Counted from the stretch's first letter, positions 1 through 64,000 are shown. The stretch is 64,000 nt of DNA from Gemmiger formicilis (GCA_963612735.1 CAVDWX010000092.1:3439-67438), one strand, 5' to 3'. The notes: generated by a model from the letters alone, not told the origin. Program-made: numbers and translations.

Positions 1-54
1 CGATTTGATGGATTTAATGTTGTTTCATATAATTCATCTGGTGACATCTCTCCT
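1..54 (-). CDS. DNA topoisomerase II large subunit (GyrB / T4 gp39-60-like), exon 4 (partial, continues beyond window start)
   Basis: Minus-strand translation gives GEMSPDELYETTLNPSN, which aligns to GyrB ...[23 protein letters not shown] and continues the frame of exon 3 after intron removal. Confidence 0.55.
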
Positions 55-336
55 CGATTTTAATTCTGACTATTTATTCACTGATATAATACACTTTATA
101 TCAGGTTTGCTCTTTCCTATTACTTTGCCTTCGTTTCCTAAAAGCAATCTACGTACCAATAGTAGAAGTACTCCCTGCCTGTGGTCGGGGATAGTCGATA
201 CAGGGGATTATAAATTATTAATATTTATAACCTTCCCACGAGACTCGATATTTATATCTTACCCTCGTTAGCAAATCAAATTTTGATTTACCCCGCTGGT
301 TAGCGGAAAAGCAAATTATGGGCCAAAAGAGTGCTC
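55..336 (-). mobile_element. group I intron 3 in the topoisomerase gene (no ORF)
   Basis: It interrupts GyrB-like coding between RYKGL and GEM. The upstream exon ends in U and the intron ends in G. Its 5' part (cataatttgcttttccgctaaccagcggggtaaatcaaaatttgatttgctaacgagggtaag) and core (cctgtatcgactatccccgaccacaggcagg) are near-identical to the other two introns, and it shows R/S-like GACTA/TAGTC pairing elements. Confidence 0.55.
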
Positions 337-691
337 AGCCCCTTATATCTAGTTAACTTCACATTTTTATGATTTCGCATATACTTTTTAAATTCACTAC
401 TATCTTCATACCAATATTTCGCTTCTTTACCATTTATTGTTCTATATAAAGGTGAAACTGCGGCATAAACTTTACCTTGTTTAATTAATTCAGGCAGATG
501 ATGTAAGAATAATGTTAGTAATAATATTTCGATATGACGACCATCCGCGTCTGCATCAGTTAAAATTATGATACGATTATAACGTAAGTTATTAATATTG
601 AAATGGTCTCCGATACCGCAACCTAAACAAGTAAGAATATCTTTAATAATATCACTTTTGATTGCGTCTGATAGTTCAAGACTCGTGCAAT
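337..691 (-). CDS. DNA topoisomerase II large subunit, exon 3 (TOPRIM C-terminal part)
   Basis: Translation NCTSLELSDAIKSDIIKDILTCLGCGIGDHFNINNLRYNRIIILTDADADGRHIEILLLTLFLHHLPELIKQGKVYAAVSPLY...TRYKGL matches GyrB TALGCGIG...IIIMTDADVDGSHI...PLYK...IQRYKGL. Confidence 0.7.
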
Positions 692-2044
692 TTTTGATTT
701 TCTTTATTTTTTAATAAATCGACTATTTATTCACCGATATAAATCGGGTCTACTCTTTCGCATTGCTTAGTCTTCGTTTCCTAAAAACTAACCACGTATC
801 AATAGTGGCGCTACTCCCTGCCTGTGGTCGGGGATAGTCTGTACAGGTTTACATATGATTGTTGTAAAATTGTCTTAAATAACTATAACTTTTATTGTTG
901 GCTATATCACGTATAGATTGCTCACTTAAATTAAATTTTTTAGCAATTAAGAATATTGGAGTTTGTAATGCTAACTCATCGTATATTTGAAATACTTGCG
1001 GAATTGTTAATTTTCCTGTAATAATACGAAAAGTTCGAATTGGATATTGTTCATTTTCTTGTTTTCAATTTTCCCCAATATTAATGCGATAAACTATTTT
1101 ATAAGTATATAATGGATTTAGCGCACAAATATCTTTAATAGTTATTGGTTCCTTAAGTTTTTTAATAATAAATTTTGCATCTTCCAAAGTTATTTTATGA
1201 TTTCCAAAATCTGGACGGCAAGGAATATTACGTACGATATGTTTTCAACTTTTAAATCTATTAATGTCTTTAACTACGTCTATTGTAGTATTATATTTTT
1301 TTGCGATATCTACTATAGAAGTTTGAAGATTAAAAGTTAAATCATTAATAATATCATAAACTTGTTCGGTAGTTATAGTTGCTCGATAACTATTTTCACC
1401 TGATAGTTTTTGAGAAACTATTTTCTTTTGGATATTTTTACTTTGCATTTCTAGACGAATCGGATATTGAATTCCATCTTGAGCATATTCTTCTCCATAA
1501 TTAATATGTTTAATCATAGCAGAAGAAACGCCATAAATTTGACCTATATCTACATAACTTAATTCAGTGTCTTTTAATAAATCATAAATAACGATAATAT
1601 CTGATTCAGTAAAATGAAAATATGGTTGATTTTTTCTGTTTTGTCCTCCAGTTTGCATATTGTATCCATTTGGCATTAATGAATTAAATGTTTTAATATA
1701 AAAAATTTCTCGTAGATTTAATTCTTCAATTTTACATTCTTCTAAAACAGTAAAGGTAAAATTTTCTATTCCATATTTTCTAATAGCCGCATGTAATAAT
1801 GTCGTAGCTCCGTTTTTAGCATCATATAAATGTCTTCGATAGCGACACTCAATATTTTTTGATTGTCCGATATAAATTTTATTACTAATTATGTTTTTAA
1901 ATTGATAAATACCTATCATATGTTTTCCCACGAGACTCAGTATAATTAACTAAGTTATCCTTTCTACGTCTATTATACTTTACCCTCGTTAGCAAATCAA
2001 ATTTTGATTTACCCCGTTGATTAACGGAAAAGTAGATTATGAGG
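692..2044 (-). mobile_element. group I intron 2 in the topoisomerase gene, carrying a GIY-YIG homing endonuclease ORF
   Basis: It lies between mini-exon 2 and exon 3. Its 5' end (cataatctacttttccgttaatcaacggggtaaatcaaaatttgatttgctaacgagggtaaag) and 3' core (cctgtacagactatccccgaccacaggcaggg at 720-860) are paralogous to introns 1 and 3. The ORF at 849..1931 is embedded in a loop. Confidence 0.6.
849..1931 (-). CDS. intron-encoded GIY-YIG homing endonuclease (about 360 aa, TGA=Trp read-through)
   Basis: N-terminus MIGIYQFKNIISNKIYIGQSKNIECRYRRHLYD... is a GIY-YIG motif. The frame runs through TGA at 1245 to ...QFYNNHM, giving a long C-terminal DNA-binding extension like I-TevI family members. 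Confidence 0.8.
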
Positions 2045-2119
2045 CAAAATCTCACCTCTTAAAGGTAAAACTGCTTGACCAGCACCTTTTGTCTCTTTGC
2101 AACCTCCTGCAGCTGAATC
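2045..2119 (-). CDS. DNA topoisomerase II large subunit, mini-exon 2 (25 aa)
   Basis: Translation DSAAGGCKETKGAGQAVLPLRGEIL aligns with the GyrB TOPRIM segment [26 protein letters not shown]. It is flanked by intron-like sequence on both sides. Confidence 0.55.
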
Positions 2120-2385
2120 CGAGTACTGCAGCCTACTCGCTGACTATTTCTTCAGAAGGACTTTCCCTCTGTCTACTGTTTCGGTCTCTCAGACACTTCG
2201 TTTCCTAAAATGTCGACACGTATCAATAGTGTCCCTACTCCCCAACAACGGGGATAGTCGATACAGGTATGATGGCTTAACCACCTTCCCACGAGACTGG
2301 GCATATTTCTATGCTTTACCCTCGTTAGCCACTAATTAAGTGACCCCTTACGATAATAAGGTAAAATAGATAAGGGCAATTCGTT
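2120..2385 (-). mobile_element. group I intron 1 in the topoisomerase gene (no ORF)
   Basis: It separates ...ELFLTEG from DSAAGG. The exon ends in U and the intron ends in G. It contains gctaacgagggtaaagc, gagtctcgtggg and cctgtatcgactatcccc elements shared with introns 2 and 3. The in-frame stop immediately after the splice site is typical. Confidence 0.6.
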
Positions 2386-3673
2386 CACCCTCAGTCAAAA
2401 ATAATTCGGCATCAGAAAAGTCTGTGGCATCCGCAAGTTTAACCGGTAAGTCTTTTAAACTATTCATATTTTTCCCACCACGAGCAATTTTTTCTTGGGC
2501 TTCACGTTTACGTTGCGCGGCTTCTTCGGCTTTTTGTTCAATCATAATTTTATCAAGCACTTGTTTGGCTGCCTTCTTATCTAACACCATCTGACCAACG
2601 GCTTTACTACAAAAAGTTCGAGCAGATGGAGAGTTAAGAGTTAATTTTGTTTGTTCGCCAAATAGCGGACGTTCACTCATATGAATTGATAAAACTAAAA
2701 CTAAACCTTTACGAATAATATCTCCGCTTAGATTTTTATCTTTAATTAATTCCATTTCTTTTGCTAACTTATTTATATTGCTAGTAAAAGCAGTTTTCCA
2801 ACCAGTAACGTGTGTTCCATTATTTGGAGTATAACCTCCATTAACGAAACTATAAATTGTTTCATATGTGCGGTCGCAATAGCAAAATGCATATTCAACT
2901 TCACAAGTTTCACCGGCATCATTCTCTACTGTAGTATTAAAATAAAATGGGTCAGTTAATACTTTTAAATCGGCGGTTTTAATTTTTAACATATCTTTAA
3001 TACCATTAGTATAATAATAAGAAGCAGTTTCAATAACTTTCTTGTCGTCCATTACTGTTAAATTAAAACGGATACCATTATTAAGCAATGCGTGTAATTG
3101 TAATTCCTCCTTGATAGTTGGAATATCCCATTTTAAATTACCAAATACAGATGCATCTGGAATAAATGAGACAGTGCTCCCAGTCACATTAGTTTTAATA
3201 GGTTTAATAATTGGGTTAGTAAATACACCATTATTGACGGTAAAGATACATTGTTCTCCTTCTCGTGTTGATACTATTTCAAAGAATGTTGATAATGCAT
3301 TTGTAACAGTTGCACCTACACCATTTAATCCTAATGAGCTTTTATAATTACCTTGACCGGTAAATTTGCCTCCACTATGAAGATTAGTACACATCTCAAC
3401 AATTGCCCATTTACCTTCTTTATTGCGCTTAAAAGGTATACCACGACCATTATCTATTACAGATGCCATATTAGTAGTAGTGTTAATAGTGATAGTAATT
3501 TCTTTACCATAACCAGCCGCCGCTTCATCCATTGCATTGGCAATAATTTCAGTTAATAAGTGGTGCATGCCCTTAATATCGTTAGTGGCAATATACATTC
3601 CTATAGATTCTTTAACAGCATCTCGGTAATTTAAAGTTCTAATACTGTTTTCATCATATTTGACGTTATTCAT
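2386..3673 (-). CDS. DNA topoisomerase II large subunit, exon 1 (GHKL ATPase + transducer + start of TOPRIM)
   Basis: Carries the HATPase_c signature HHLLTEIIANAMDEA...IDNGRGIP and LHSGGKF, and ends ...KLADATDFSDAELFLTEG (GyrB LADC...ELYLVEG). Confidence 0.8.
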
Positions 3674-4442
3674 ATTTTTTTAATATTTCTCCTTTCATTT
3701 TAATAAAAAATTCTATTTGCTCATTATTTCAAGTATTTGGAAAAGTCCATCTACGTTCTCTTTTATGATAGATTGGCAAATGTTTCCAGTTTTGACCAGA
3801 TATAATGGAGACAATAGTTCTTTCTTTATAAGAAGAAAAATGCTCTATAATTTTTTTTCGTGGTCAAATTGTATATAATATTCTAATTTCAATTACATCT
3901 TGTTCATTAATAATATTTTGAGGATTTTTTTCTCCTAATTGACGAGTTTTTTCCTGTAAATGAACATATTGTTTTTCGTAAACTTCAGGCATAATATCTA
4001 AACGTACTTGTCCATTATAGACTTCAGCAATTAAATGTCTATCTAAATTAGGGAAAAATTGACGTTGAACTTCTGCTCCACTAGAATATTGTTGACTAGC
4101 ATAACATTCTCGAATTTTAATAATATCTTCATCTGTCAATAGTGACAAACTGTCTTTACTAGGACAAGAATAATATGACCCTCCAGGAGTTTGATTATAA
4201 CCATTTAAATAACTATTATAATATTGAATTCAATAAATCTCTCTTTCATTCAATTGTTCGCGAGGACATTCTTCAATAATTTCAAAAACAAAATTATTTA
4301 CACCTTCTTTTTTTATAGCATTATCAATGACACTATCTTGTCATCCTTTTAAATGAGAAGTTAAACGACGTTCTAATTCAATTGATTGCCCGATATATAT
4401 TTTATTATTAATTTTATTAGTAATTTTATAAATTCCAATCAT
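3666..4442 (-). CDS. free-standing GIY-YIG homing endonuclease (TGA read-through)
   Basis: Start MIGIYKITNKINNKIYIGQS is GIY-YIG. The frame runs through TGAs and ends 5 nt into the topoisomerase start codon region. The coding sequence includes the topoisomerase RBS. Confidence 0.7.
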
Positions 4443-4504
4443 ATGTATCTCCTTATACATTATAATATACACGCCATTAGATAAAATATCAAATTTTCCT
4501 TGTC

Positions 4505-4882: not shown

Positions 4883-4982
4883 ATTTTTTTCTAAAGTTTT
4901 ACTCAGCACTGATAAAATGAAATAAAATTAGTTCAAATTTAATACTATTTTTCTTTCTCATCAAGCGCTTGGTGTTTTTGGT

Positions 4983-5500
4983 TTAAAAATTTAACAGCAT
5001 ATTCTCCACATTGAGTGGCGGCATCTTCGAATCAAGCGCCGTCATATGGTGCTCATTCCTTATTAGGGAACCAAGTGCGCAACCAATAACGAGTAGCACT
5101 AGGAATCGCAACGATAAGCGGGAATAACGGGCCGAATAAACAATTTTGAAAAGTATGGCCAAATTCGTGCCAATCAATTCCTTCAACAGTTGACTCTTGA
5201 TCTCGCAAGAACATTAATCCCATTTCACATCCACCTCACCAATCAGGACCTACGTTAATGCCGTAAATCCAATAGAATGGTTTAAAAGTAATTTTGTCAG
5301 GAATAAAAATTTTAACAATGGCAAGAATGACTGTAATAATGATGCCTAAAATCGTCATAATAATTCCCCACGTACAAGCAGTTAAATAATACAACCATCT
5401 GTGTTTTAAAACGAATTTAGTTCATTTTGCACACAAATTAAACATAAAATTGCCAATTTTTGAATGTTCATATAAAGGTTTAATTTCCATAATTTCTAAC
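4983..5500 (-). CDS. hypothetical membrane protein (TGA read-through, Trp-rich)
   Basis: Frame continues upstream of ORF 4983..5186 through several TGA codons. It encodes hydrophobic segments. The boundaries are approximate. Confidence 0.4.
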
Positions 5501-5506
5501 CTCCGC

Positions 5507-6166
5507 CTAATTTTTTTCATCTAAATAAATGTAACGATGTCCGTGGAATTTGTAGCCACGTCGTATCGCTCTGGAAATGTGAGTAGAAGGAGCATGATAT
5601 TGATCTGCAACACTTTTTACTGATGGGTAAATACGAATAATATCTCCAGTTTCGGATACTTCAGCTACTTGTCTATATTTTTTATTAAGAGGAACAGCAA
5701 TTTTTTCTTCTTTATTGAAACTCCAGAAAAACCCTCCTGTTTGACTAAAAATTCCTTTGCAAGTTTTTAAAATATTTTGATGTAAACAACCTGTTACACG
5801 TTCAGCTTCATTAGCGCTAACAAACTCATTAATGAAATTGCCTTGTAAATCGTATTGATAAACAGGTGTCTCTAAAAAATTTCCGCAGTCTCCTCCTTTA
5901 GTGCTATTATAACCATTGGTATAAGAATCATAATATTGAATGTAATAAATTTCTTTTTCATTTAATTTATCTTGAGGAATATTTTCTTCTATAGGTTCTA
6001 TTGAAAACTTGTCTATTCCATATGCACGCATTGCTCGATACAAATGAACATCTGAAAATTTACTATAACAACAATGCTGATCTCATCTTCTTTTTAATCG
6101 TTGAATGGTTTGCCCTATATACACTTTATCATTTACAGTGTTGGTAATTTTATAAATCATTCCCAT
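5507..6166 (-). CDS. free-standing GIY-YIG homing endonuclease
   Basis: N-terminus MGMIYKITNTVNDKVYIGQTIQRLKRRWDQHCC has W encoded by TGA in the conserved RW-x-x-H position. It overlaps the end of the permease gene by 17 nt. Confidence 0.75.
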
Positions 6167-7508
6167 TCTCATTCTTTTTGTCCTTTAAAATTAAATTCAA
6201 AAAGATACCAATAATCATAGCTAAAGCTACGCCAGTAAAAGTAAAATTACCAATTGGAACAAACAACCCTCCAACTCCCGAAATTAAAATAATAGAAACA
6301 ATTAAAGTATTTTTTGTATTTTCTAAATCAATCTTTCTCAATTCTTTCAATCCGCTAATGGCGATAAAACCATATAAAATTAATGCGCATCCGCCAAACA
6401 CACAATAAGGAATTGTTTGAACCCATCACATTAAAGGAGCAAATAGTCCTAAAATTATAGCTAAAATTGCGGCTCCAATAACCGGATATATACTTCCAAC
6501 CTTAGTAATTCCGATAACTGCGATATTTTCTCCGTAAGTAGTATTGCCCATACCACCAATAAAACCTCCTACAGCGGTGGCAATGCCATCACCCAAAGCT
6601 GTTTTGTCTAAACCGGGTTCTTCTAATAGATCTTTTTGAATAATATTAGATAAATTTAAATGATCTCCTATATGTTCGCAAAAAGCCACACAACTAACTG
6701 GAATTGCTATCAATAATATTTGAGGAATTTGACTTCAAGTAAAGTGATTATATTTAAAACCTTTAAAAGCCTCAATAAAAGAAAATTTAGGCAATCATTT
6801 CAATTTTGCACCAAAAGAAATCAATTGCATTGATTCATTTCCACAACTCTTTCCAATCAAGGTTAAAATTAAAGCCAATATGTATCCTCCTATAATAGCA
6901 ATTAAAAACGGCAATGTTTTGAGCAATCCTTTACCATAATAAGATAATAATGCAACAATTAACATTGTAAAGATAGCTACTAATAAAGATCAACCATTAA
7001 AATCGATTAATCCGTTTTGCATGCTCCAAGAAGTTGCAAATCCAGCGAGGCCTAAACCAATTAAAGTTACTACAGGACCTACAATAACGGGAGGTAAAAT
7101 TTTATGTAATATATTTGCACCAAATTTTTTAACTATTAAACTTAATAGCATATAAACTAAAGCTACAACAGTTAACCCTAAAATTAAAGCAATGTAATTA
7201 CCACCTGGTTCTTCAGAAGCTCCAAATCCCATAAATAAACAAGCCGACATAATGGGCATAAGGGCCGCGCTTGAACCTAAAAAAACAGGGCTTTTGAATT
7301 TAGTAATAAAAGCATAAATAATTGTTCCAATACCTGCGCTAATAATAGCAGCAGGAACCATTTCAAAACTTTGATAAGTTAAAATAGAAATTAAAGATGT
7401 AGCAACGAACATTGCCAAGCAGTGCTGAATACTATACAATATGATTTCTTTTTTAGAAGGTTTATCTTGAATATCATAAAGTAAATTCTTATTTTTATTC
7501 ATTTCCAT
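6150..7508 (-). CDS. uracil/xanthine permease (NCS2 family, UraA/PyrP-like)
   Basis: Three ORF fragments join in frame through two TGA codons. Contains EHIGDHLNL...ALGDGIATAVGGFIGGMGNTTYGENIAVIGITKV, a close match to the UraA core. Confidence 0.75.
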
Positions 7509-8031
7509 AATCCTCCTTTAGTACCTTAACTAATTCATCACTTGAACAAACTAATTTACCATGAGTTTTTATGGCACCTGTTAAAAATATATTAACATAA
7601 CTCATCTGAGCTTCGCCCGGTTCTTTTTGCATGGCCGCCAATTTTTGTTGGCCAACTTCTCCTTGGCAAGTTAAGAAACCTTCTCGGCAATCATCGTAAA
7701 GAGCATATAAATTCTTTTTTGGGTCGGCGTCAATCATTTGAGTATAAATGCCTATTTCACAAGTGGTTCCTATTGGAGGAGTATCGTTACTGATTACTGC
7801 AATTAATAAATCTGTTTCTTTTAATCGATTATAATCCCCTCAATAAATATCATATGAGGTAGCACATTTTGTTTTATCATTTATATTTTTATTACGATGA
7901 GGAACATAAATTTGTGCATTTGGGAAAATAGGTACTAAACGTTCGTATAATCAATCAAGATACATTCGGTCTTTTTCAGTAAAAATTGGACCGGCTAAAT
8001 AAATTCTATTTGCAACCTTCTTACTATTCAT
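7384..8031 (-). CDS. nucleoside 2-deoxyribosyltransferase-like protein (NDT/Rcl family)
   Basis: N-terminus MNSKKVANRIYLAGPIFTEKDRMYLDW... carries the YLAGPxF motif of PF05014. Two internal TGAs are read as Trp. The 3' end is uncertain because TGA at 7495 is read through in code 4. Confidence 0.55.
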
Positions 8032-8625: not shown

Positions 8626-9042
8626 TTATGATAATTGCTCCTCAATTTTTAATTTTGTATCATTCATTTTTGCGACACCTGTTAAATTATCAGCCCGAGT
8701 AATTGTTACAGAGTCATCTTTAAAGATAGGTTGTGTAATACTTGGTTGATATATAGCTGGTTTGCTGGTGCCACCTATACCACTAGCCCAATTATCATTG
8801 ATAGTAATAGTATTGGCACGTCAAGTTTCTATAAATTTATTGCATTTTAACTGTATTTTAAAATTTTCTAAATCAGATAAGGTTGTTTCTTTCTCGTTCA
8901 TATCTTTGATAAAGGCTTGAAATTTTGATTGATATTTACATACTTCATAATGTACGCATAATGTACATTTTACTGGTTCAATAATAGCCGATAATTGTTG
9001 AACATCGCTATTGTTGTTGTTATTATTTTTCTTCGTTGCCAT
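8626..9042 (-). CDS. hypothetical protein (TGA read-through)
   Basis: ORF 8821..9042 continues through TGA to the TAA at 8626. Confidence 0.4.
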
Positions 9043-10126
9043 GATTTGTTATCGCTCCTTCTATCCCATCTTCAGCTAATCTTAATTTTACAAGGTAAGG
9101 ATGACGCAAGCGTCCTCGATCGTTGTAACTCATTGCTTTTACTACAGCAAAAAGGTTTCCTTTTTTAATATCTTCAGTTGCAGAAACTAACCATTCTCTG
9201 TCTTCATCGGTTAGACCACTTGTTACTGAAGTTGTGTTTCCATCTGGCAGCTGAACCACAATGCCATTTGCCCAGCCATAATAATAAGGCTTAGTAACAG
9301 GTTCCCAGTCTGTCCATGGGTCATTTAACTCCACTGCAGATGGAGTTCTGATTACTAATTTTTTTTCTCCGCTATCAAGATAAGAGACTTCCCAATAAGA
9401 CCAATTAGAAGGATTTTGACCTTCGTATTCTCTCTTTGGTACTAAGACTCCAATTACTGGTAGCTCCATTTCTTCTAAACTTTGTTTTAATTTCAAAGTT
9501 TTCCATGCGGTACGAGTTCCTGGTAAGTAGGGGTTATCCTTACGTTGAATTACTACTCCTTCTCCACCTGCCGAAATAATTTGGTCTGCATGTTCAGCAA
9601 AGTCATTGGTAAAAATGGCAGTTGGTTTAAAGTAGTGATTAGATAGTTGTGAAAGAGCTCCTAAACGTTGCTCATATGGTGTGTTAGTTAAATCTTGATT
9701 ATTATACATTAAGACATCAAACATTAAACCATATAGCTTGTTCTCTTTTTGTCTTTCAACTGCCTTTGGTGGTAAACAACGTAAGATGGTTCCAACTGTA
9801 TTAGCATTAGTGCCGTATTCGTTCCAACAAATCTCTGCTAAGACAACAGTATTGTCTGGCCAAGTGTCCATTTCTTCAGTCAGATGAGGAAGTTTAGCAG
9901 TGTAATCTCCATATGCACCTGTGACTTTGCTGATGCTTCTACTGTGGATTAAATTATTGCCTTTAGAAAAATGAGCAAAAAGTCCAAAATCTCCATCATG
10001 CTTTTCTGTGGCTATATAAAGATTATCTTTGTTGTCAATCATAGCTTGACGTTTAAGGTTAGAATCATCTTCATTATTATAATATTTCATAATTGGCATT
10101 TCGTAGGCTATATAATGAATGTCCAT
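9023..10126 (-). CDS. ATP-dependent polynucleotide ligase (DNA or RNA ligase, nucleotidyltransferase superfamily)
   Basis: Motif I ATEKHDG (KxDG), motif IV GGEGVVIQ, motif V AWKTLKLK. Arg is absent after KxDG, so an RNA-ligase-like identity cannot be excluded. Confidence 0.6.
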   Translation of the reverse strand: MDIHYIAYEMPIMKYYNNEDDSNLKRQAMIDNKDNLYIATEKHDGDFGLFAHFSKGNNLIHSRSISKVTGAYGDYTAKLPHLTEEMDTWPDNTVVLAEICWNEYGTNANTVGTILRCLPPKAVERQKENKLYGLMFDVLMYNNQDLTNTPYEQRLGALSQLSNHYFKPTAIFTNDFAEHADQIISAGGEGVVIQRKDNPYLPGTRTAWKTLKLKQSLEEMELPVIGVLVPKREYEGQNPSNWSYWEVSYLDSGEKKLVIRTPSAVELNDPWTDWEPVTKPYYYGWANGIVVQLPDGNTTSVTSGLTDEDREWLVSATEDIKKGNLFAVVKAMSYNDRGRLRHPYLVKLRLAEDGIEGAITNHGNEEK

Positions 10127-50585: not shown

Positions 50586-50662
50586 TTTATCTTTTACCTA
50601 CCTTATTATTTTATTTTATTGTGGGCTTGTTTTAGGTGTAAGCCCTAACCACCTTTAAACTC

Positions 50663-54194: not shown

Positions 54195-54213
54195 TGTCGG
54201 GAGGCTTGCAAAT

Positions 54214-56022
54214 ATGCTAGACGATTTAAACTTTTATGATGAAGATTATATGGAACCTGAAATAGCCGACCTAATAGAATTCTTTGATAATGAAGAGAGA
54301 CAAACTACTAATACCTTAACTAAAAAGCGCATTGATGAACATTTTCAAGAGGTGGGCAGATACTTAAATGAGTTTATGATATATCCTGATTTATTTGTTG
54401 ATTTACTTGTGCCGAAGCGTAGTCACTTCACATTATATCCATTTCAACGTATAATGATGAGATGCATGGCTCGTGGAACTGCAACTTATGAAACTTTATC
54501 ACGTGGTACCTCTAAATCATTTATTGCCGATTTGGAGCGCTACCTCCACTGTATGTTCGTTCCACGTCACAATACAACAATTACCGCCGGAACAATCAAA
54601 CAGGCAGCAGAAATTGCCAAGCAAAAATTCGTTAATGACTTATGGGTAAAATTCCCTCTTCTTGGTAACGAGATGCAACGTCGTGTAGTAGCCGGTAAAA
54701 AGATGGACCCGTTTTCAGTGCAAAAAGATTATGTATCATTTACTTTTAAAAACGGTTCGTCAATTTCATTAGGTAATGTCCGTGGTCTACGTCGTCAATC
54801 ATTAATCTTTGAAGAAGTTATTGAACAAGACGAAACCCTTGTAAATGAAGTTTATATTCCTATGTTAAATGAACCTCGTAAAATGAGTAATGGTTTAATA
54901 AATCCATACGAACCACAATCTCAAGAAATTTATATTACTACTGCGGGATACCAGCAGACGTTTGCATATCAAAAGCTTATTGAAATATTATGTCGTTCAG
55001 TTATGGATCCAAATAACTATTATGTTATCTGTGGAACTTATCGTATTCCATTATACCACGGTTTAACTGCGAAGAAAAAAATTGAGGACGTTATTAATTC
55101 TCCTTCATTTAGTAAATCTTCATTTGAACGTGAATATGAAAGTAGATGGAGTGACGCACCAGCTGGCGCGGCATTTAATGTTAATATGATCAGCGCATTG
55201 CGTCAAGTAAAGTTGACTGAATTAAAGAATAAATTAACTACCACTCAATTAAGTGACGGTTGCTTTTATGTCATCTGCGCCGATATGGCGAAAGATGGTG
55301 CGGCCGAAACGGCAGTCGGGGTAGCAAAAGTAATTCCAAAGGAACACTTTTTTACTTACAAATTTGTTAACCTATTTAGTATTACTTCAACTGACTACAT
55401 GGTTATTGCAAATGAATTTAAGAAAACCGTTCTACTCTATAACGCCAAACTTCTTATATACGATGCCAATGGTATCGGTGCAGCAATGCGAGATTGGTTG
55501 AATAAAGAAACTCGTGATGATAAAGGTATGATTTATGAGGGATTAGGAATTATTAATCCACCAACAGATGCCGAAAAAGATTTAATTGCATATCCTAAAG
55601 AGAAAACCATCTGTTATGAAATTAAGTCAGGTGGAACAATTGGAGAACAAATTCATTACTTCTTCTTCTCACGTATGAGTACCGGGGCTATTACTTACCC
55701 ACTTAAACTTACAGATGCAATTGCATTATATGGACGTAATAAAGGTTTCATGGATATGAGCATGCGCAAACAAAAAGAAGTTTTAGCACCATTCCAAGTA
55801 ATGGATAAAATGGAACAACAACTTAAAAACTTAGATATTCTAAACACATCTGACACAATGACCAACCGTTTAAAAATTGTTCGTCGTAATGCAAAAATTC
55901 AAAAGGACTATTTTTCTATGGCAGAGTATTTAGTATGAGCGGTTAATAAACAATTTGAATTAGAATATTACAAACGTAAACGACAAAAAGGCAAAGGTCG
56001 TAAAATTGCCTTCTTCGACTAA
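54214..56022 (+). CDS. terminase large subunit
   Basis: About 602 aa after TGA read-through. Has an ATPase-like N-domain (YPFQRIMMRCMARGTATYETLSRGTSKSF) and a nuclease-like C-terminal half. Located before the portal. Confidence 0.65.
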
Positions 56023-56040
56023 CGAAGGGAGAAAACAACT

Positions 56041-57597
56041 ATGGCAGATCCAAAATTACAATTTCGAAAAAATCGTATAGAAAAATTAAAAAACATGTAT
56101 GCAGATGACCAATCTTCTCGTCGTCGACAAGATAATAAACCATCTTATTTGTCATCTGATTATGCAAATGCATCAGCAGTTCGTCAAGCATTGTGGGGTT
56201 CCATTAATGATCCGAATACTTTAGCGGAAACATCTCGTAAACTTTATGCAACAAATCCTATTTACGCATCTGTTATTAATTATTTGGCAGATATGTATAC
56301 TTGGAATTACAAAGTTATTCCACACAAGGTTTATGCTAAGACAAAAGCAAAAGCCAAAAAAACTTTAAAACCAGATGACTTTCAATTAATGTATAATTTA
56401 ATGCTAGAAGTTGCAGATGGTCTTTCTATTGAAACTAAATTTCCGTCTTTATTAACATTATTATTTGTTACAGGTTCTGTTTACTTTACCACTTTTTGTG
56501 ACGAAGAAAATTATGCTATTGATACAATTTTATTGCCTAATAAATATTGCCGAAAAATCGGTGAAACTCAATTCGGAACAGCAATTATTCAATTAGATAT
56601 GAGCTATATTGATGATTTGGGTGGAAGTACAGATGAACTTAAAAAAGCTTTTTTAGAAGGTTTTCCTGTTGAATTTAAAAAATATTATAATGCCTATAAG
56701 CGTGATAGTCAAAAGCGTTGGGCAACATTAGATCCAAGATTTTCAAGTGCCATTTTACTAAATGACGCTGCAATCCCAACTTTTTTCTATCTTTATGGCG
56801 GAATTCTTGACTATGAAAAATATCAAGACAATGAATTGCAACGTAATGAAAATTTATTAAAGTACATTGTGGTTCAAACAATGCCTCATTATGAAGATAA
56901 ACTTATTTTTGAGGTAGATGAAGTTGAAGCATTGCACAAAAGTTTGCGTCGTATTGTAGAAACGAATGATAAGGCACGTTTAATCACTACTTATGGTGAT
57001 ATTAAAGTAGCTAAAATTGCCGAAAATGATACATCTGAAAATGAAGTATTAAGTAAAGCCTTCAAAGCAATCTTTAATAACGCCGGTTTCAATAGTGCAA
57101 TTTTTACGGCAGAAAGTGTTAATGCATTACAAATGTCTTTAGTACGTGATAAAGGTTTTGTATGGAGACATGTGCAAAAATTAGTTAACTTCTATAATAT
57201 TGCTATTAACAATTGATTTGATTTCAAGACCTACCAAGCGGATATTGAAATTTTACCAATTTCGCCGTATACTATCAATGACGATATAGGAAGATATAAA
57301 GCTAACGCTACACTTGGTGTTGGCAAGTTAGATTATTTTATAGCGTCAGGTATTAAGCAAAAGAATATTCAAGATCAATTAGACCTTGAGGACTTCTTAA
57401 AATTAGATGAGATTAAGCCAATGCAAACATCTTATACTCAAACTGCGGAAGATAGACAAGATGAACAGCAACAAGATGGCGACAGTGATTCATCTAATAA
57501 AAATGCTAAACAAGACAATAGCGCTCAAGAAGATAATACAAAAGATGGGGATACAAAATCAACTCCTGAAAATGAGCCATCAGGTCAAGATAAATAG
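56041..57597 (+). CDS. portal protein
   Basis: About 518 aa through TGA at 57214. Follows the terminase and has an acidic/polar C-terminal tail typical of portals. Confidence 0.55.
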
Positions 57598-57647
57598 AGC
57601 ATCTAACTATTAATTATTAAGCGCAGTCTTAAGAAAGAGGATTAAAG

Positions 57648-59231
57648 ATGAAAAAACCAACTATCAATTTCAGTTGGCCTGTTGTATTATCAGATTTCTC
57701 GAACAATGAAGATAAAAATTATGAAATCTTCTCTCGTTGTAAATTGAAAGTCTTTTACAAAGGAGAAACAGCAGATCATCGTTATTTCAGCGATGAATTC
57801 GCAGATCAATTAATTCGTTCTCTTCCTTACACACCTGTTGTAAGTAGATATGATGACGAAAGTGAAGATTTCGAAGGTCATGCTAGTCGTCAAGAAATCT
57901 TTGGTATCGTTGATCCTTGCGGAGAAATTACTTTTGAAGACGATGAAGAAGATGGAAAGATATGGTGTGTTGCAGATGTAATTTTATACACTGAACGTCC
58001 AGACCAATTGGGCGAACTTGCCAAAAAGATTCCAGGTCATCCTCATTCATTAGAATTAGATCCTAAATCAACTAAATACAAAATTAACTATGATGACAAG
58101 AAACACTTCAAAAACATTGAATTTACCGCAGGAGATTTTGTTGGCGTAAGTGTGCTTGGCATGAATCAAAAACCGGCTTTTACAGGTTCAACCTTCTTTG
58201 AAGAAAATAGTGAATTTACAAAGAAAATGCAATTGTTAAAGAATTATTGTGAAAGACGATTAGAAGAAAACCAACATGGAGGCGAAAAAATGAATTTAAG
58301 TGAATTCATCAAGTTAACATGGGGTGACATTTCTGTTAGAGTGGTAAACGCTATTCAAGAAGAATATCACGAAGAACTATATATTTGTCCAATAGATTTC
58401 TATGATGACAGTGTAGTTTGTCACGTATATTCTTTTATCGATGGAAGTACAACCTATTTTAGATTCTATTATACTATTGACGAAAATGCAGTAGTAACTT
58501 TAGGAGACGTAAAAGAAGTACATGTAGTTTGGGAAGATGTGCCTGAACCTACACCAGAACCTTCTCCTAATGCAAGCTTAGAAGACAATGCCACTGCAGC
58601 AGGAACAGACATGGGACAAGCAGAACCAGAACCTAGTGCAGATCCAGCAGAACCAGAAGTTGGTGAACAAACTGATTTTAATGATCAAACACCTGAAAAC
58701 GCTCCTGAACCTGAAGCTACACCAGATCCGGAACCTGTGAGTGCTGCCTCTACTATTGAGAATGAAGACGGTCACAACAGCGATGACCAACAATCAAATT
58801 TCACCGGTGCAGCAGCATCAGTAACAAATGTCGAAGACGCTCCACTAGTTAACGAAGGACAACAACAACAAGTTAATGAAAGTGAGTGTGGACATGAAAA
58901 CAAACAAAATGAGACTTCAAGTTCTACCTCATTTACTGACAGTGAAAGAGAAGAATATGAAAATCTTAAGAAAGCAAAAAAAGTCCAATTAGTCGATTCT
59001 TATAGGAATGTATTAACTGAAGAAGAGTACAACAACTATATTACTTCAATTGATACTTTTAGTGCTGAAGATCTTGAATTAGATTTATTAAAAATCTATA
59101 AACGTGTCAATGATGAAGCAAATGTTACATCTGTACGCGGTATTGGAAGAGCATTTACTGTGTATGCTCCAGAAACTAAAAACACAGAAAATCCACTAGA
59201 CGCATTTGTTCGTAAGAACCTAAAGCGCTAG
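57648..59231 (+). CDS. prohead protease / scaffold-like protein
   Basis: 527 aa with a central highly acidic Pro/Glu-rich low-complexity region (EPTPEPSPNA...PEPEATPDPEP) and a coiled-coil C-terminus. Sits between portal and capsid genes. Confidence 0.4.
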   Translation: MKKPTINFSWPVVLSDFSNNEDKNYEIFSRCKLKVFYKGETADHRYFSDEFADQLIRSLPYTPVVSRYDDESEDFEGHASRQEIFGIVDPCGEITFEDDEEDGKIWCVADVILYTERPDQLGELAKKIPGHPHSLELDPKSTKYKINYDDKKHFKNIEFTAGDFVGVSVLGMNQKPAFTGSTFFEENSEFTKKMQLLKNYCERRLEENQHGGEKMNLSEFIKLTWGDISVRVVNAIQEEYHEELYICPIDFYDDSVVCHVYSFIDGSTTYFRFYYTIDENAVVTLGDVKEVHVVWEDVPEPTPEPSPNASLEDNATAAGTDMGQAEPEPSADPAEPEVGEQTDFNDQTPENAPEPEATPDPEPVSAASTIENEDGHNSDDQQSNFTGAAASVTNVEDAPLVNEGQQQQVNESECGHENKQNETSSSTSFTDSEREEYENLKKAKKVQLVDSYRNVLTEEEYNNYITSIDTFSAEDLELDLLKIYKRVNDEANVTSVRGIGRAFTVYAPETKNTENPLDAFVRKNLKR

Positions 59232-59249
59232 AAAGAAGAGGTTATAAAA

Positions 59250-59768
59250 ATGATTGTAGATCTATTACCAAAATTTGAACAAATTGAAGTTAATAACCTT
59301 AAAGGCTTACAACCTGGTTTCGTTGTAGCACAAATGCCAGTCAAAGCACAATGTGAATACGTTAGAAAAGAAAATGGCGTTGAATATTTTGAAAATGGTC
59401 ATATTTGCGCTATCAGCGTAGACGGAATCAAAGTTCCTGAAGCAAGTGATAAGGTTTTATTTATTTCTTATAATGATCCTATCAACACTATTTTTAAAGG
59501 GGCTAATCTTTATGCAACTAATCTTGAAGAAGAATATGTTCGTTTAGTTCAATTAATTCCTGGTGATGAATGGATGAGTACAATTGATTACTTTGAAAAA
59601 GAAGGTGAACCTGAAGCACAAACATATAAATATGCTGGTGCCAGCGCCATCGAAGGAAGAGTAGTTAAAATAGAAGGCACAAGTGGTTTAGGCAAATCAG
59701 ATGATTGGTTTGAAGTTGATACAATGCCTGATGGAACAAAGGCTTACCACTATATTTATTTAGGATAG
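59250..59768 (+). CDS. hypothetical head protein (172 aa)
   Basis: Intact ORF with RBS, immediately upstream of the major capsid protein. Confidence 0.4.
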   Translation: MIVDLLPKFEQIEVNNLKGLQPGFVVAQMPVKAQCEYVRKENGVEYFENGHICAISVDGIKVPEASDKVLFISYNDPINTIFKGANLYATNLEEEYVRLVQLIPGDEWMSTIDYFEKEGEPEAQTYKYAGASAIEGRVVKIEGTSGLGKSDDWFEVDTMPDGTKAYHYIYLG

Positions 59769-59775
59769 GAGCGAG

Positions 59776-60834
59776 GTGAACATAATGAATAATGAATTAA
59801 AAACTGGCATTATCGCCGCATTAGAAAATAAACCTTCTGCTAATTTTAGTGCAGAAGATGTCAATAACGCTGCTATCTCTGCAATTTGTAAAGAATTAGG
59901 TTTAGGTGAAAATCCATCTGCTCGTGAAATTCGTGCCGTAGCTCCTCAAGCTTTTGCATTAATTGAAGAAGCAGTAGACGAAATTTTACCTAAAAAATTA
60001 GAACAAGTATTAGGCGAATTCGCAGAAGTTAAATCTTTTGCTCGTGACGCCGAACCTTTGTTTAATATTGATAAAATCGGTAAAAACCGTGCTAAATTAA
60101 CTATTGCTAAAGGCGCTCGTGGTGGTATCTATAGAGCAGCTAGATTAGATAGCAAATATTTTAGCTTAAAAACTCATGTTGAGAGTGTGGCAGTATATGT
60201 AACTTTAGAAGACATTTTACTTGGCACTGCAAGTTTAAGTGAATTATTTAATAACGTTCTTGAAGGAATGGAAGAAATTGTTTATAAACAAGTATTTGAA
60301 GCATTAGCATCAGGTACATCTACTTTAACAGGCAATGCAGTAAAAGATTCAAATGGTCTTTATAATGCTATTAAATATAATGGCGGAACTGCTATTGCAG
60401 CAACTTCAGCAGCATTAGCTCCTGCATTAGACGAAGTATTACCAAAAGTTAAACAATATGGTGTTCCTATGATCTTTGGATCTTATGAAGTTTTAAGTAA
60501 ACTTAATAATGAAGGAATTGAATTCCATCCTGAATTAAAAGATTCTGAAGATAAGAGAAATTATGGCTTTATTCAAATTTATAAAGGTGTTAAAGTTGTA
60601 GAAATTCCTAACTATTTAATTGATAACCGCAATGATAAATGGTTCTATGACAACTCAACAGTATTTGTAATTCCATCTGGTGTTAAACCTGTTAAAGTTG
60701 CTTTACGTGGAGACTTAGAAATTCAACGTAATGAATCAGCAGTTGGTTCAGAAAAATGGGAAGCTCATAAATTAATCGGTGTTGGTGTTGCTATGGCTAA
60801 CAACTATGCTGTTATTAAGGTTACTCTTAACTAA
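59776..60834 (+). CDS. major capsid protein
   Basis: 352 aa, strong RBS aggagcgaggtg, typical position and size for an HK97-fold MCP. Followed by the strong RBS of the next gene. Confidence 0.6.
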   Translation: MNIMNNELKTGIIAALENKPSANFSAEDVNNAAISAICKELGLGENPSAREIRAVAPQAFALIEEAVDEILPKKLEQVLGEFAEVKSFARDAEPLFNIDKIGKNRAKLTIAKGARGGIYRAARLDSKYFSLKTHVESVAVYVTLEDILLGTASLSELFNNVLEGMEEIVYKQVFEALASGTSTLTGNAVKDSNGLYNAIKYNGGTAIAATSAALAPALDEVLPKVKQYGVPMIFGSYEVLSKLNNEGIEFHPELKDSEDKRNYGFIQIYKGVKVVEIPNYLIDNRNDKWFYDNSTVFVIPSGVKPVKVALRGDLEIQRNESAVGSEKWEAHKLIGVGVAMANNYAVIKVTLN

Positions 60835-60897
60835 TAACAATATTTAAGGAGGAGGACTTTCCTCTTCCTTCTTTAAATAAAGAAAGGAGACATTCTA

Positions 60898-61377
60898 ATG
60901 TCTGAAAACAGATTTTTTAAAATTATTAAAACAACACCTGATCAAGTTATGTTTGTATTACACTCTGTTAACAATCCAAGTTTAAATAAACTTGTGAGAT
61001 TAACTGATCGTATTCCAGAACAAACAGTTCCAGTAGATTGGGCTTTAGATTTGTTCTTAAATGAAGAAAATTATCAACTATTTAAAAATGGTTGTATTAC
61101 AGTAAATGATGTTCAAGGACTTACCGAAGCAGCGATTAAAGCTGGAGTTTACTTTGGTGCAGAACTAGATTTTGTGCCTGCAAAAGTTGAAGATTCTAAA
61201 CAAATTTTAGCAATTGTTAAAAGTGGCACTCGTAGTAAAATTTTAGATGCAATCAAAACATATGGAGAAGAAAGGGTTAAAACAGTAGTAGTTAGTAACG
61301 TAAGTGAATTAACATCTGGTGTTATTCAAATGCTTGAAGGTATTTTTAAAATCCAATTAACAATGGATATTGAGTAA
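60898..61377 (+). CDS. hypothetical head-tail protein
   Basis: Intact ORF with RBS aaggaggagg. Confidence 0.4.
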   Translation: MSENRFFKIIKTTPDQVMFVLHSVNNPSLNKLVRLTDRIPEQTVPVDWALDLFLNEENYQLFKNGCITVNDVQGLTEAAIKAGVYFGAELDFVPAKVEDSKQILAIVKSGTRSKILDAIKTYGEERVKTVVVSNVSELTSGVIQMLEGIFKIQLTMDIE

Positions 61378-61416
61378 AATAGTAAAACGATAAATATTAA
61401 CACGGAGGTAGAAAAC

Positions 61417-61950
61417 ATGGCAGACTTACAATATTGAGATAGTATCTTATATCCATCTTTTAGGGCTACAATTCGTGGAGAATATTACGGTATTATTTCA
61501 CAAGATGACTTGGATGAAGAATGTTATAACATTGCATGCCGAGCAATTGCCGCATTTAAATTTCCGAAAATTTCTACCGCATATGAAACTTTTTATGCTA
61601 TTCGCAATGAAGAGACAAATGCTATCGAAGAAGTAAGTGAAGATGATGAAAATTTTGAAGATGCTATTCCGCACGGTCGTTTCTTAAATCCTATGGGTTA
61701 TGAAGAAATCGAAGTAATCTTAGCATGGATGAAAGTTTTCTGGTGCGAACATCTTTTATCAAATAGTGATAACTTTGATGGTATTTATACTGACTCTAAT
61801 ATTAAAACATTCTCACCTGCTAATTTAGTAGATAAAAACACTAACCTACTTAAGGTATATAGAGAAAATGCTAAAGACATTGAGAATCGTTATAGTAGAG
61901 TAAATTCTTTACGTCGTCCTTCTTTAGGAGATGTAAATAGCGATGAGTAA
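61417..61950 (+). CDS. hypothetical head-tail connector protein (TGA read-through)
   Basis: ATG at 61417 with RBS ggaggtag. In frame with ORF 61510..61950 through TGA. Confidence 0.4.
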
Positions 61951-62746
61951 TTCATTCGAACGTTTTCGTCGCACCAATCAACAACGTGTTCAAGCTAATA
62001 AAAAACTAAATAGTCAATTTATTATTAAAGGTTATCCATCTATTGAAATTACAAATGCTAATGCCGAGAAACAATTAGCATGCGTAGTCAATAAACAAGA
62101 AAAAGATTTGGCTTATATTTATACTTTTATCAATGAACCTTTAACTGTCGGCAGCATTTGGAGTGCGAAAGGTCTTAGTTGGCTTATTGCCGAAGAAATT
62201 GTTGTTATTAAAGATGTTGATTGGCATAAATATCAAGCATATCTTTGTAATGTGCAAATTGATGATAGTTGAGGATATTTTGTTGGACCGGAAAAATCTT
62301 ACATTAATGTTTCGTTAAAGCAAGACGTAGTATTGCAATCTCAACAAAAACCTCTATTAGTTTTGCCATCTGTAAAAGCATTGGCAATTAATGATATTGT
62401 TGTTATAAAAGGACGTCCTTGGTTAATTCAAGAGATAGATAATATTAGTACAGATGGCTTAGTATATTATTCATTACGTCCAACAACTGTAGATAAAGAT
62501 ATTTCGGCGGAAGAAAATTATATTTATCGACCAGAGTTAGAAAAGCCGCAATTTGAAAATAGTGAGGGACATGATCAATTGATTACTCAAACTACAGAGC
62601 AAGGCTATTTCTGACGTTCAACTGAAGCCATCGAAATTATTCAATTAAGCCGCAACTCAGTTACTTTTAAAGTGCCTTTTGGTTTAAAGAGCGCTACTTT
62701 TAAAGTTAAACAAGGCGGTCAAATTATTACAAAGCAGGTGCAATAA
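61943..62746 (+). CDS. hypothetical structural protein (about 267 aa, two TGA=Trp)
   Basis: ORFs 61943..62272 and 62333..62614 share a frame and continue to the TAA at 62744. Confidence 0.4.
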
Positions 62747-62747
62747 T

Positions 62748-63260
62748 ATGAAGAGTTTAGAAACAATTAAAAGAACTTTATTTGAAATTGCACAGACTTT
62801 AAGTCAAAATACTTATTTACAACAATTATTAATTGAAGATAATAATGATATTCAAAAAGGCAATCCAACTTTTACTATTCATAGTATTAATGATTTAATG
62901 GATGGACAATATATTTGCTTAGATGCTCACTTGGAGAATGGTATTGTAAATCATGGCCGAAACTCTTTTATCATAATCCATTTAGATAGTATGAGTTTTA
63001 AACAAAGCGGAAATAATATTCCTGTTTATGGTTCTATTTATATAGCAACTGATAAAAATCATGTTATGCTTACTGAAAATCGTCAAAGATTATGAGAAAT
63101 GATAGATGAAATTTATAAAACTATTGATGGAAAGAAATTCTCTGCCGCAGGAGTTCTTGAGATTAAAAATGTTTCATCTGTTGTGTATTCTGAATATAGT
63201 TTTGGATATCGTATAAGTTTTGAATTTAAAGAACAGGAACAAAGAAAGGCGGTGTTATAG
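62748..63260 (+). CDS. hypothetical structural protein (about 170 aa)
   Basis: ORF 62748..63095 continues through TGA to the TAG at 63258. Confidence 0.4.
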
Positions 63261-63995
63261 TTGAATTCTTCTTTTAAAGATGACTTTTCATTAACACGAC
63301 TTTTTATGACAAAGGACATTAACGTACGCACAAGTGATGGTGGAAAATTTGTTTTCCACTGTCCTAGTGTTCGTGATTTATTTTTAAATGAAGATATGAG
63401 CTTAACTATCTTTTGTATTACTACATCTGATGAGAAAGTTCAAAATGTTATGAGTTTAAAGGCAGATAATCGTTTAGACTTCTTTGAAAAATTGTTTTTT
63501 GAATTTGGGGGGTATAAACAAATTAGTCCTCTAGTGCAAAAACTTTCTACAAGTTTAAAGCAATTATTACCAGGTTTTGAATTAAATTTTCAGACTAAGA
63601 CTTTTGAAGTAAATGATCTTACTATTACAAAGGAAATTTGAGATTATATCACATATTTAGTAAAATTATCTTGTGGAGAAAAGGTATCCCAACCTCTAAT
63701 CTTTGATTCACTAGAGGCCGAAGCTTTTTGAAAAAAGCAACAAGAAATGGATGCTAAAATTAAAAAGTTAAAGGCAGATAAAGAAGGAGATCCAGAAGGT
63801 TTAATTAAAAATCTGATGGCAATTACATATAGTTTTCCTTCTTTTACAATTGATTATTTATATAATCAAACCATGGCTCAAATTCACTGACTCCGAGAAC
63901 TAGCCGCGGGAGAAGTGTCTTATCGTTTGCAATCGCAAGCCGCAGCGGCGGGAAATATAAAAAAGGGAAATAAATTAAACTTTTTTATTAAATAA
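63261..63995 (+). CDS. hypothetical structural protein (TGA read-through; start codon uncertain)
   Basis: ORF 63261..63641 continues through several TGA codons to the TAA near 63993. Confidence 0.3.
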
Positions 63996-64000
63996 GAGGT

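Follow-up and report, generated by a model that had tools for sequence, protein, structure and literature searches.

A large TGA-recoded phage with an SPbeta-like structural module and a long-armed opal-suppressor tRNA

Introduction

Recoded phages of standard-code hosts have 26 to 71% of their genes recoded, compared with about 90% when the code is shared with the host, as in the code-25 case (Borges et al., bioRxiv 10.1101/2021.08.26.457843). The same study found that recoding of replication genes is variable, and it described the "Agate" phages, of about 127 kilobases (kb) and from the guts of cattle, pig and tortoise, in which a group I intron endonuclease biased toward TGA lies inside an early gene and a transmembrane protein is heavily recoded. 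Where the suppression product of a phage tRNA(UCA) has been analyzed, the amino acid inserted was tryptophan (Trp) in 13 of 13 cases (Seki et al., PMC12636597). The stretch of DNA discussed here, called the window throughout, is 64 kb long (positions 1-64000; GC 34%) and comes from a contig listed under Gemmiger formicilis (GCA_963612735.1, CAVDWX010000092.1:3439-67438). We were concerned with the meaning of TGA in its genes and with the tRNA(UCA) that it encodes.

Read-through of in-frame TGA

Coding density was calculated from a greedy, non-overlapping set of open reading frames (ORFs) over the window. It was 0.676 under table 11 and 0.854 with TGA as a sense codon, and only 0.682 with TAG as a sense codon; the comparison of tables 4 and 11, which the initial annotation of this DNA had put forward as a check, thus came out on the side of table 4. 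All 11 IMG/VR contigs with capsid proteins 56-68% identical to that of the window gain coding density under code 4 likewise, and a control locus from phAss-1, a gut phage that recodes TAG, does so under code 15 alone. The 86 ORF stops in the window comprise 58 TAA and 28 TAG codons and no TGA. In-frame TGAs total 79, and the genes that contain them have no in-frame TAA or TAG. The genes on which read-through can best be followed lie in two regions.

4945..8031, minus strand: accessory cluster with TGA
4945..5520, minus strand: membrane protein, 4 TGA
5507..6172, minus strand: GIY-YIG endonuclease, 1 TGA
6150..7508, minus strand: xanthine/uracil permease, 4 TGA
7495..8031, minus strand: nucleoside 2-deoxyribosyltransferase, 2 TGA
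53100..63995, plus strand: packaging and head module of SPbeta type, 0 to 3 TGA per gene, with 57648..61377 TGA-free
54214..56022, plus strand: TerL
56041..57597, plus strand: portal
59785..60834, plus strand: YonB-like major capsid protein

The permease matches positions 2-387 of the 389 in Pfam PF00860 across its 4 TGAs, and its invariant residues are conserved downstream of them. The deoxyribosyltransferase could be aligned with PDB 7M5H along its whole length, both TGAs included, and the match of the portal to phrog_2739, over residues 11-501, takes in TGA392. TerL aligns with its relatives over the full 602 residues, across TGA575, and the last 27 residues are conserved too. On these alignments, read-through of in-frame TGA in this phage is certain. 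The initial annotation had described the permease, a 2.1-kb early protein, the tail fibers, the terminase and the portal as all running through multiple TGAs; this was correct for the permease and the 2.1-kb protein (16 TGA) and four of the six tail-fiber genes do contain TGA, but the terminase and the portal have one each.

We note that intact TerL matches two PHROGs of "unknown function," phrog_15503 and phrog_24618, one with each half of the protein, which suggests that public families have been assembled from such fragments; these two were probably built from terminase genes split by standard-code gene calling.

Meaning of TGA

The GIY-YIG endonucleases allow the meaning of TGA to be examined against a protein from outside the group of recoded phages. 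In addition to the gene at 5507..6172, the window has four of them.

849..1919, minus strand: GIY-YIG homing endonuclease, 2 TGA and 0 TGG, within the middle of three intron-like elements
3666..4460, minus strand: free-standing GIY-YIG endonuclease, 4 TGA, with TGA77 aligned to the Trp of the I-TevI FWI motif
23145..23459, minus strand: GIY-YIG protein of 104 residues, all 3 of its 3 Trp codons TGA, immediately upstream of the tRNA(UCA)
51818..52885, minus strand: fusion of a transmembrane/coiled-coil N-terminal part and a GIY-YIG C-terminal part, 5 TGAs, all at codon 268 or beyond

In four of these five genes, TGA is the codon at the two conserved Trp residues of T4 I-TevI, those of the motifs KRW..H and FWI. 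I-TevI is a standard-code protein, and the comparison is therefore independent of recoded orthologues. The initial annotation had drawn attention to the string AGA-TGA-GAT-CAG-CAT and to like cases in the other GIY-YIG genes; the string occurs once, at 6074-6088 on the minus strand within the gene at 5507-6172, where its TGA aligns with the Trp of I-TevI KRWKRH.

Alignment with orthologues gives the same answer over a larger number of sites. Among 144 window TGA positions so aligned, 46 face TGA and 40 face TGG; the other 58 face mostly Tyr, Leu and Phe, with Ser once and Gly and Cys never, and this substitution pattern is that seen at TGG. In the reverse comparison, 141 of 189 orthologue TGAs lie opposite a window TGG or TGA. 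At permease TGA258, Trp is the commonest residue in cellular homologues, although this is the only one of the four permease sites that is commonly Trp, and the sites in the deoxyribosyltransferase are not conserved Trp; these two genes thus prove read-through rather than the identity of the amino acid. Taken together, the alignments identify TGA as a Trp sense codon in this phage.

Gene-by-gene use of TGA

The initial annotation was right about the Trp meaning but not in holding that TGA has it throughout: only 24 of the 79 credible genes (30%) have an in-frame TGA. The genes that contrast most sharply in this respect are the following.

2348..3673, minus strand: first exon of a type II topoisomerase (GyrB ATPase part), TGA-free
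9023..10126: ligase, standard-code, TGA-free
10210..12333, minus strand: protein of 707 residues with no assigned function, the most recoded gene, 16 TGA and 2 TGG
12346..13692: UvrD helicase, standard-code, TGA-free
14240..14734: RNase H, standard-code, TGA-free
23948..24607: PhoH, standard-code, TGA-free
24724..25215: dUTPase, standard-code, TGA-free
27136..51217, minus strand: early block of 37 standard-code genes

In 47 early, replication and nucleotide-metabolism genes there are 2 TGA and 120 TGG codons, so that TGA makes up 0-2% of 122 Trp codons, compared with 53% (77 TGA and 68 TGG) in the remaining 32 (p = 2e-23, Fisher test). Both of the 2 TGAs, which lie in a single gene, 42786-43235, and 89 of the TGGs belong to the 37-gene block at 27.1-51.3 kb. 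A further ten genes, for replication and nucleotide metabolism or adjacent to such genes, contain 31 TGG and not one TGA, and among them are those for GyrB-N, the ATP-dependent ligase, the UvrD helicase, RNase H, dUTPase and PhoH. The scarcity is not compositional: read in either of their other two frames, these genes contain TGA often. The claim that early and late genes both use TGA is thus only partly borne out: some TGA-rich genes (10210-12333, the permease and the deoxyribosyltransferase) do lie in early-looking operons, but the early block itself is nearly devoid of the codon.

The mosaic extends to the scale of single genes. The gene at 10210-12333, with 16 TGA among its 18 Trp codons, is the last of an operon in which the helicase and RNase H have no TGA, and the ligase gene directly downstream of it has none either. 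Within the packaging and head module, TerL and the portal have 1 TGA each, and the major capsid protein and a scaffold-like protein have none. The gene for the scaffold-like protein (57648-59231) is TGA-free in the window only; the capsid gene and its flanking genes (59250-59768 and 60898-61377), taken to be the late genes with the highest expression, have 0 TGA in 58 Trp codons across the 11 relatives, and the genes surrounding these three are recoded. Such avoidance in the capsid gene and its neighbors is expected if decoding of UGA is costly, through competition with a host release factor.

The 707-residue protein has only eight homologues that we could find. In six of them, Trp occurs without exception at nine of its TGA positions. 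It has no match in Pfam or among the PHROGs, and an AlphaFold2 model was unusable, with a mean predicted local distance difference test (pLDDT) score of 40.

Promoters and the early block

The window has 27 perfect promoters of the form TTGACA-N16-18-TATAAT, compared with about 0.06 expected on a composition-based estimate. Nearly all are intergenic and on the minus strand. They lie mainly within 32270-49531 (minus strand), so that the early block holds most of them, and are found also at 4854, 10174, 23809 and 52923; four stand in tandem at 48653-48980. No consensus promoter was found in the packaging and head module. From their sequence we take these to be a set of very strong early promoters of sigma-A type. 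All but one of them precede TGA-free genes; the other precedes 51818-52885, where the first 267 codons are free of TGA. Two features are of particular interest here.

23809..23837, minus strand: promoter TTGACA-17-TATAAT, heading a unit of 23483-23773, the GIY-YIG gene 23145-23459 and the tRNA(UCA)
39080..39919, minus strand: phage sigma-70 family factor with regions 1.2, 2, 3 and 4, TGA-free, behind a perfect promoter

The early block encodes, besides this sigma-70 factor, a thioredoxin-reductase-like protein, a DUF2828 protein, metallophosphatases, a 5'-nucleotidase and helix-turn-helix proteins. The sigma-70 factor presumably drives late transcription.

The gene at 51818-52885 can be read in two ways: under the standard code it gives a transmembrane/coiled-coil protein of 267 residues, and with suppression a fusion of 355 residues, and it may be a two-product gene.

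The suppressor tRNA

The unit headed by the promoter at 23809 ends beyond the tRNA, where a stem-loop precedes a run of T. Two tRNAs are compared in what follows.

23034..23129, minus strand: opal-suppressor tRNA of bacterial tRNA-Trp type, 96 nucleotides (nt), anticodon UCA at 23095-23093
33280..33353, minus strand: phage tRNA-Trp(CCA), of ordinary length

The tRNA(UCA) folds as a 7/5 cloverleaf with an extra arm. Its acceptor stem, AGGGGAU/AUCCCCU, begins with A1-U72 and has G2-G5 paired to C68-C71, followed by G73 and an encoded CCA; these elements are the identity set of Bacillus subtilis and Escherichia coli tRNA-Trp, in which G5-C68 is a minor member (PMC9976931). It departs from ordinary tRNA-Trp in its anticodon and in its variable region, which is a 17-nt hairpin carrying CCA, and it owes its length to this long variable arm. 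ARAGORN labels it "SeC(tca)," and the Rfam tRNA model misses it at the gathering score. On the Rfam model for selenocysteine tRNA (tRNA-Sec) it scores 43.8 bits, just below the family cut-off of 47, owing to the long arm. An identity as tRNA-Sec was considered and rejected: besides the score, the fold is 7/5 and not 8/5, most family members have U just ahead of A1, the 3' end is G-CCA, and the sites read are Trp. No ribozyme or other RNA was found beside the tRNA(UCA).

The order of gene, GIY-YIG gene and tRNA(UCA) is conserved in two relatives, L076 (4302-4739) and L104 (4668-5196), and the GIY-YIG neighbor may move the tRNA(UCA) between phages. With all of its Trp codons TGA, this endonuclease would be producible only when the tRNA(UCA) works.

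Two other tRNAs of the window have features of their own. The tRNA-Trp(CCA) has an unusual T loop, UCCAAGU, instead of the usual UUCGAAU type. At 29981-30057 (minus strand), and at 2793-2869 of the locus L023, is a 77-nt class I tRNA with the anticodon CAA (Leu codon UUG) and A73 but without a long variable arm; a short arm is atypical for bacterial tRNA-Leu, and the window copy closes its anticodon loop with A.C.

A hairpin in the variable region

The extra arm of the tRNA(UCA) is a stem-loop whose loop resembles an anticodon loop.

23065..23081, minus strand: variable-arm hairpin of the tRNA(UCA), GGAG[CGUCCAAAC]CUCC, with UCCAA displayed in the loop

IMG/VR was scanned for Trp-type tRNA(UCA) with a pattern in which only AGGGG, a CUUCAAA anticodon loop, the T loop and a 3' CCCCU were fixed. 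The scan gave 30 matches, 25 of them 91-96 nt long. In the 24 long forms that were aligned, all five stem pairs of the variable arm covary, with 20 distinct stem sequences, and the loop has UCCAA in 23 of the 24 (at least 90% conserved); in 11 it is exactly CUCCAAA, the anticodon loop of tRNA-Trp. Among the matches listed from a scan of metagenomes, 84 of 89 unique long forms carry UCCAA within the variable region, where shuffling predicts 1.9, and in 79 it is the loop sequence enclosed by a stem at least 4 base pairs long, with 48 distinct stems. The loci covered are L013-L042, L076, L104 and L127-L246. The arm that carries UCA is the one truly homologous to an anticodon arm; in one locus, L025, it differs from that of an adjacent tRNA-Trp(CCA) only by C34U.

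The motif was found in none of 76 tRNA(UCA) of the deltaproteobacterial selC* type, with U73. Long-arm Trp(CCA) tRNAs are rare, and the two unique sequences found both lack it. A comparable arrangement is seen in Gln-type long-arm tRNA(CUA) from IMG/VR (L247-L256), where all eight unique sequences display U-CUG or U-UUG, the sense anticodons of glutamine (Gln), in a variable stem-loop; examples are CACGG[CUCUGAC]CCGUG and AUUCC[CUUUGAA]GGGGU, and the predicted stem is only 2-3 base pairs in three of the eight.

A phage gene for tryptophanyl-tRNA synthetase (TrpRS), of 361 residues and with the KMSKS motif, lies about 2.4 kb from a short-variable-loop tRNA(UCA) in L024 (9626-10721) and L035 (6124-7219), a link that rests on this one lineage. 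No other synthetase was seen near suppressor tRNAs in the 157 loci (1.08 Mb) examined, and none beside long-arm forms, within flanks of limited length.

Glutaminyl-tRNA synthetase (GlnRS) uses the anticodon as a major identity element. The same is true of TrpRS (PMC9976931). One interpretation of the arm, which we put forward tentatively and rate as possible rather than probable, is that it is a pseudo-anticodon arm, which would show the loop of a sense anticodon (Trp or Gln) and so keep the host TrpRS or GlnRS able to recognize a tRNA that reads a stop codon. The arm could instead recruit an enzyme that modifies the anticodon loop, or allow a switch between two folds; it could also be a relic of duplication, which fits poorly with a loop conserved over 48 different stems. 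No description of the natural arm was found in the literature searched, of which coverage was incomplete and which included the main texts of Borges et al., Seki et al. and the theta-ribozyme preprint, and priority for describing it is uncertain.

If the pseudo-anticodon interpretation is true, it explains how the code could be switched without a phage-borne synthetase, and also why many opal suppressors are overlooked or wrongly labeled by standard tRNA-finding programs. It makes testable the question of how a phage gets a stop-reading tRNA charged by a host synthetase, and such an arm may help in the design of suppressor tRNAs.

Relatives and phage type

A megablast search with 24 kb of the window against 50,697 phage records gave no match at the nucleotide level, and the helicase, used as a probe for related loci, gave nothing usable. 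TerL is 28-33% identical to the proteins of large siphoviruses of Bacillota: Geobacillus E3, Brevibacillus Sundance ("YonF"), the Bacillus Tsamsa group and phAss-1. The major capsid protein contains the YonB family, named from an SPbeta protein, and in a sister contig the gene next to the capsid gene has a faint match to the tail-tube protein YomU, likewise named from SPbeta. The structural relatives, SPbeta/E3-like, infect Bacillus, Geobacillus, Clostridium and Enterocloster, and the closest named cellular homologue of the permease is from Clostridia. Three of the 11 related IMG/VR contigs are 118-130 kb long, and the window thus appears to be roughly half of the genome of a large SPbeta-like phage of about 120-135 kb. 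The phage is of gut or rumen type and probably virulent, and its host, judged from these homologies, is most likely a standard-code anaerobic member of the Bacillota. No lysis cassette was identified within the 64-kb window.

Other genes of the window

The remaining features include a group of tail-fiber genes and a second large protein with many TGAs.

16062..23000, plus strand: tail-fiber module of six genes, with 3, 0, 0, 6, 4 and 2 TGA
25290..26891, minus strand: protein of 533 residues with no assigned function, 9 TGA and 4 TGG

Hint/intein-type domains (PF07591 and PF01079) were found in two tail-fiber proteins, in the C-terminal part of 16062-18845 and at about residues 113-188 of the 401 encoded by 19739-20944, and their presence suggests autoproteolytic processing of tail fibers. 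Three intron-like elements, related to one another and lying at about 97-330, 740-2049 and 2196-2330, divide the topoisomerase gene (window 1-3673, minus strand) into at least four coding pieces. Rfam group I intron models gave no match in 1-2600 even at E = 1.

Interpretation and alternatives

We consider it highly probable that the window comes from a large TGA-recoded phage, "Agate"-like by published description, with an SPbeta-like structural module and most likely a standard-code Bacillota host, in which TGA serves as a translational gate. Early, replication and nucleotide-metabolism genes, with TGA neither as sense codon nor as stop and with host sigma-A promoters, would be expressed at once by unmodified host machinery. 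The phage would also make its tRNA-Trp-derived UCA suppressor, and once this had been charged with Trp, presumably by the host TrpRS, and was competing with release factor 2 (RF2), UGA would be read as Trp. Only then would the TGA-bearing genes be completed, i.e., those for virion proteins, the five GIY-YIG endonucleases, the permease, the deoxyribosyltransferase and the two large proteins without assigned function. The gate would thus be added to the transcriptional control exerted by the phage sigma factor. The use of host-type promoters to mark TGA-avoiding genes, with TGA-rich ones interleaved even within one operon, supports such a gate over a genome-wide code and gives an unusually clean view of gene-by-gene recoding.

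Several observations weigh against this interpretation. Evidence on the host from binning is weak: one relative falls with an Oscillospiraceae genome and another with a "Bacilli" metagenome-assembled genome (MAG), and the GTDB class Bacilli includes code-4 lineages. Neither RF1, RF2 nor TrpRS was found within the 64 kb by motif search, by tblastn with phage TrpRS or by Pfam on about 50 proteins. Nor was any other obvious RF2-interfering gene found there, a kind of gene for which the initial annotation had advised a search. The base after sense TGAs shows no bias that would indicate RF2 competition (p = 0.09). RNase H, helicase and 15256-type genes carry TGA in some relatives. The recoded set is not simply late, with the 16-TGA gene, the permease and the transferase in early-looking leftward operons, and the suppressor tRNA is itself behind an early-type promoter. 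Given that promoter and these accessory genes, "late" here means "needs the suppressor" and does not denote a transcription class.

The initial annotation had left open a TGA-recoded phage, to which the mosaic use of TGA, the phage's own tRNA(UCA) and the 30% of genes recoded all point, but had favored a phage of a code-4, Mollicute-like host, which the same features do not support. A native code-4 phage, sharing the code of a Mycoplasmatales/Entomoplasmatales-like host or of another code-4 lineage of Bacilli that reads TGA as Trp, would account for the meaning of the codon, the low GC of 34% and the lack of any TGA stop, and it would be at ease with TGA in early-looking operons, and in replication genes of some relatives, and with the relative binned with a "Bacilli" MAG. 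We nevertheless regard it as improbable. It predicts uniform TGA use, where we see near absence from 47 genes and about one-half of the Trp codons in the rest; TGA accounts for no more than about half of the Trp codons even in genes that are recoded, and the recoded fraction is far from the roughly 90% seen where phage and host share a code. The capsid gene and its neighbors shun TGA across 11 relatives, the structural relatives live on Bacillus, Geobacillus, Clostridium and Enterocloster, the nearest named cellular homologue of the permease is clostridial, and a code-4 phage would have no need for a tRNA(UCA) of its own, yet one is encoded alongside a tRNA-Trp(CCA). The argument that had led to a code-4 host, that recoding in gut phages concentrates in late genes, was also too strict: Borges et al. 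report that replication genes are recoded to a variable extent and that an early gene holds a TGA-rich intron endonuclease.

A different meaning of the codon is much less probable still. TGA might be read as Gly, as in code-25 phages of Absconditabacteria/Gracilibacteria, which do exist, as Ser through recognition of the long arm by seryl-tRNA synthetase (SerRS), or as Cys or selenocysteine through a selC-like tRNA, to which the long variable arm, the 43.8 bits on the tRNA-Sec model and the ARAGORN label lend some color. The 144 aligned TGAs, however, include no Gly or Cys and a single Ser, and they follow the pattern of TGG, with Trp first and then Tyr, Leu and Phe; the conserved Trp of I-TevI is spelled TGA; the 7/5 cloverleaf, A1-U72 and G73-CCA are of Trp type; and the 76 selC*-type tRNAs carry U73 and no UCCAA loop. 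Least credible of all is the standard code throughout, with the TGAs as pseudogene lesions, assembly errors or occasional context-dependent read-through. Nothing specific speaks for it beyond the coding density of 0.68 that table 11 still yields, and it is at odds with 79 in-frame TGAs in genes free of in-frame TAA and TAG, with conserved sequence after the TGAs (the invariant permease residues and the end of TerL), and with TGA positions that are shared with independent metagenomic relatives or swapped for TGG in them.

For annotation, the contig needs TGA to be read as Trp, ideally by a mixed-code gene caller; otherwise about one-third of its genes are fragmented.

Comparison with known systems

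Known phages of code-4 Mollicutes are small and use TGA throughout. The window has TGA = Trp in common with them and differs in having TGA in 30% of its genes and in encoding a suppressor tRNA. The type of recoded phage to which it belongs is already known, and the window is a well-resolved further example.

The Agate phages are the most similar of those described. The likeness covers the size class of the relatives' genomes (118-136 kb), TGA as Trp and nearly absent as a stop, a phage suppressor tRNA, and recoded structural genes together with standard-code replication genes. It extends to the TGA-rich endonuclease (849-1919) in a topoisomerase intron-like element and to the TGA-bearing transmembrane/coiled-coil gene at 51818-52885. 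This likeness to the clade is drawn from described features, and Borges et al. do not describe the architecture of the suppressor tRNA. Phage phAss-1, of the "Caudoviricetes code 15 clade" (Babkin et al. 2023, PMC10607447), is a distant relative from the gut, with a genome of about 136 kb and TerL identity of 28.5%; it is likewise recoded, with suppressor tRNAs and no dedicated synthetase and with a host guessed to belong to Clostridia, but it recodes TAG to Gln rather than TGA to Trp.

In the Jade "code-change module" (tRNA(UCA), TrpRS and RF1) and the TrpRS:tRNA(UCA) pairs of AP1 and HF2, the tRNA(UCA) inserts Trp and competes with RF2 (Seki et al. 2025, PMC12636597), as proposed here, but the window is without TrpRS or RF1. 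The selC*-type tRNA-Cys(UCA) and allo-tRNAs (Mukai et al. 2017, PMC5389517) are also opal-reading, with a long variable arm and A1-U72, and match the same loose sequence pattern; the selC* type differs in U73, in its deltaproteobacterial origin, in acceptor branches of the 8/4 type and in the absence of the UCCAA loop (0 of 76). The closest parallel to the arm itself is synthetic: an engineered variable arm that copies the cognate anticodon arm raises aminoacylation by a synthetase with an added anticodon-binding domain (Mukai 2020, PMC7590224). That design combined a His system, an allo-tRNA chassis and a fused domain, whereas the phage arm is natural, widespread and conserved, and is found with no engineered synthetase.

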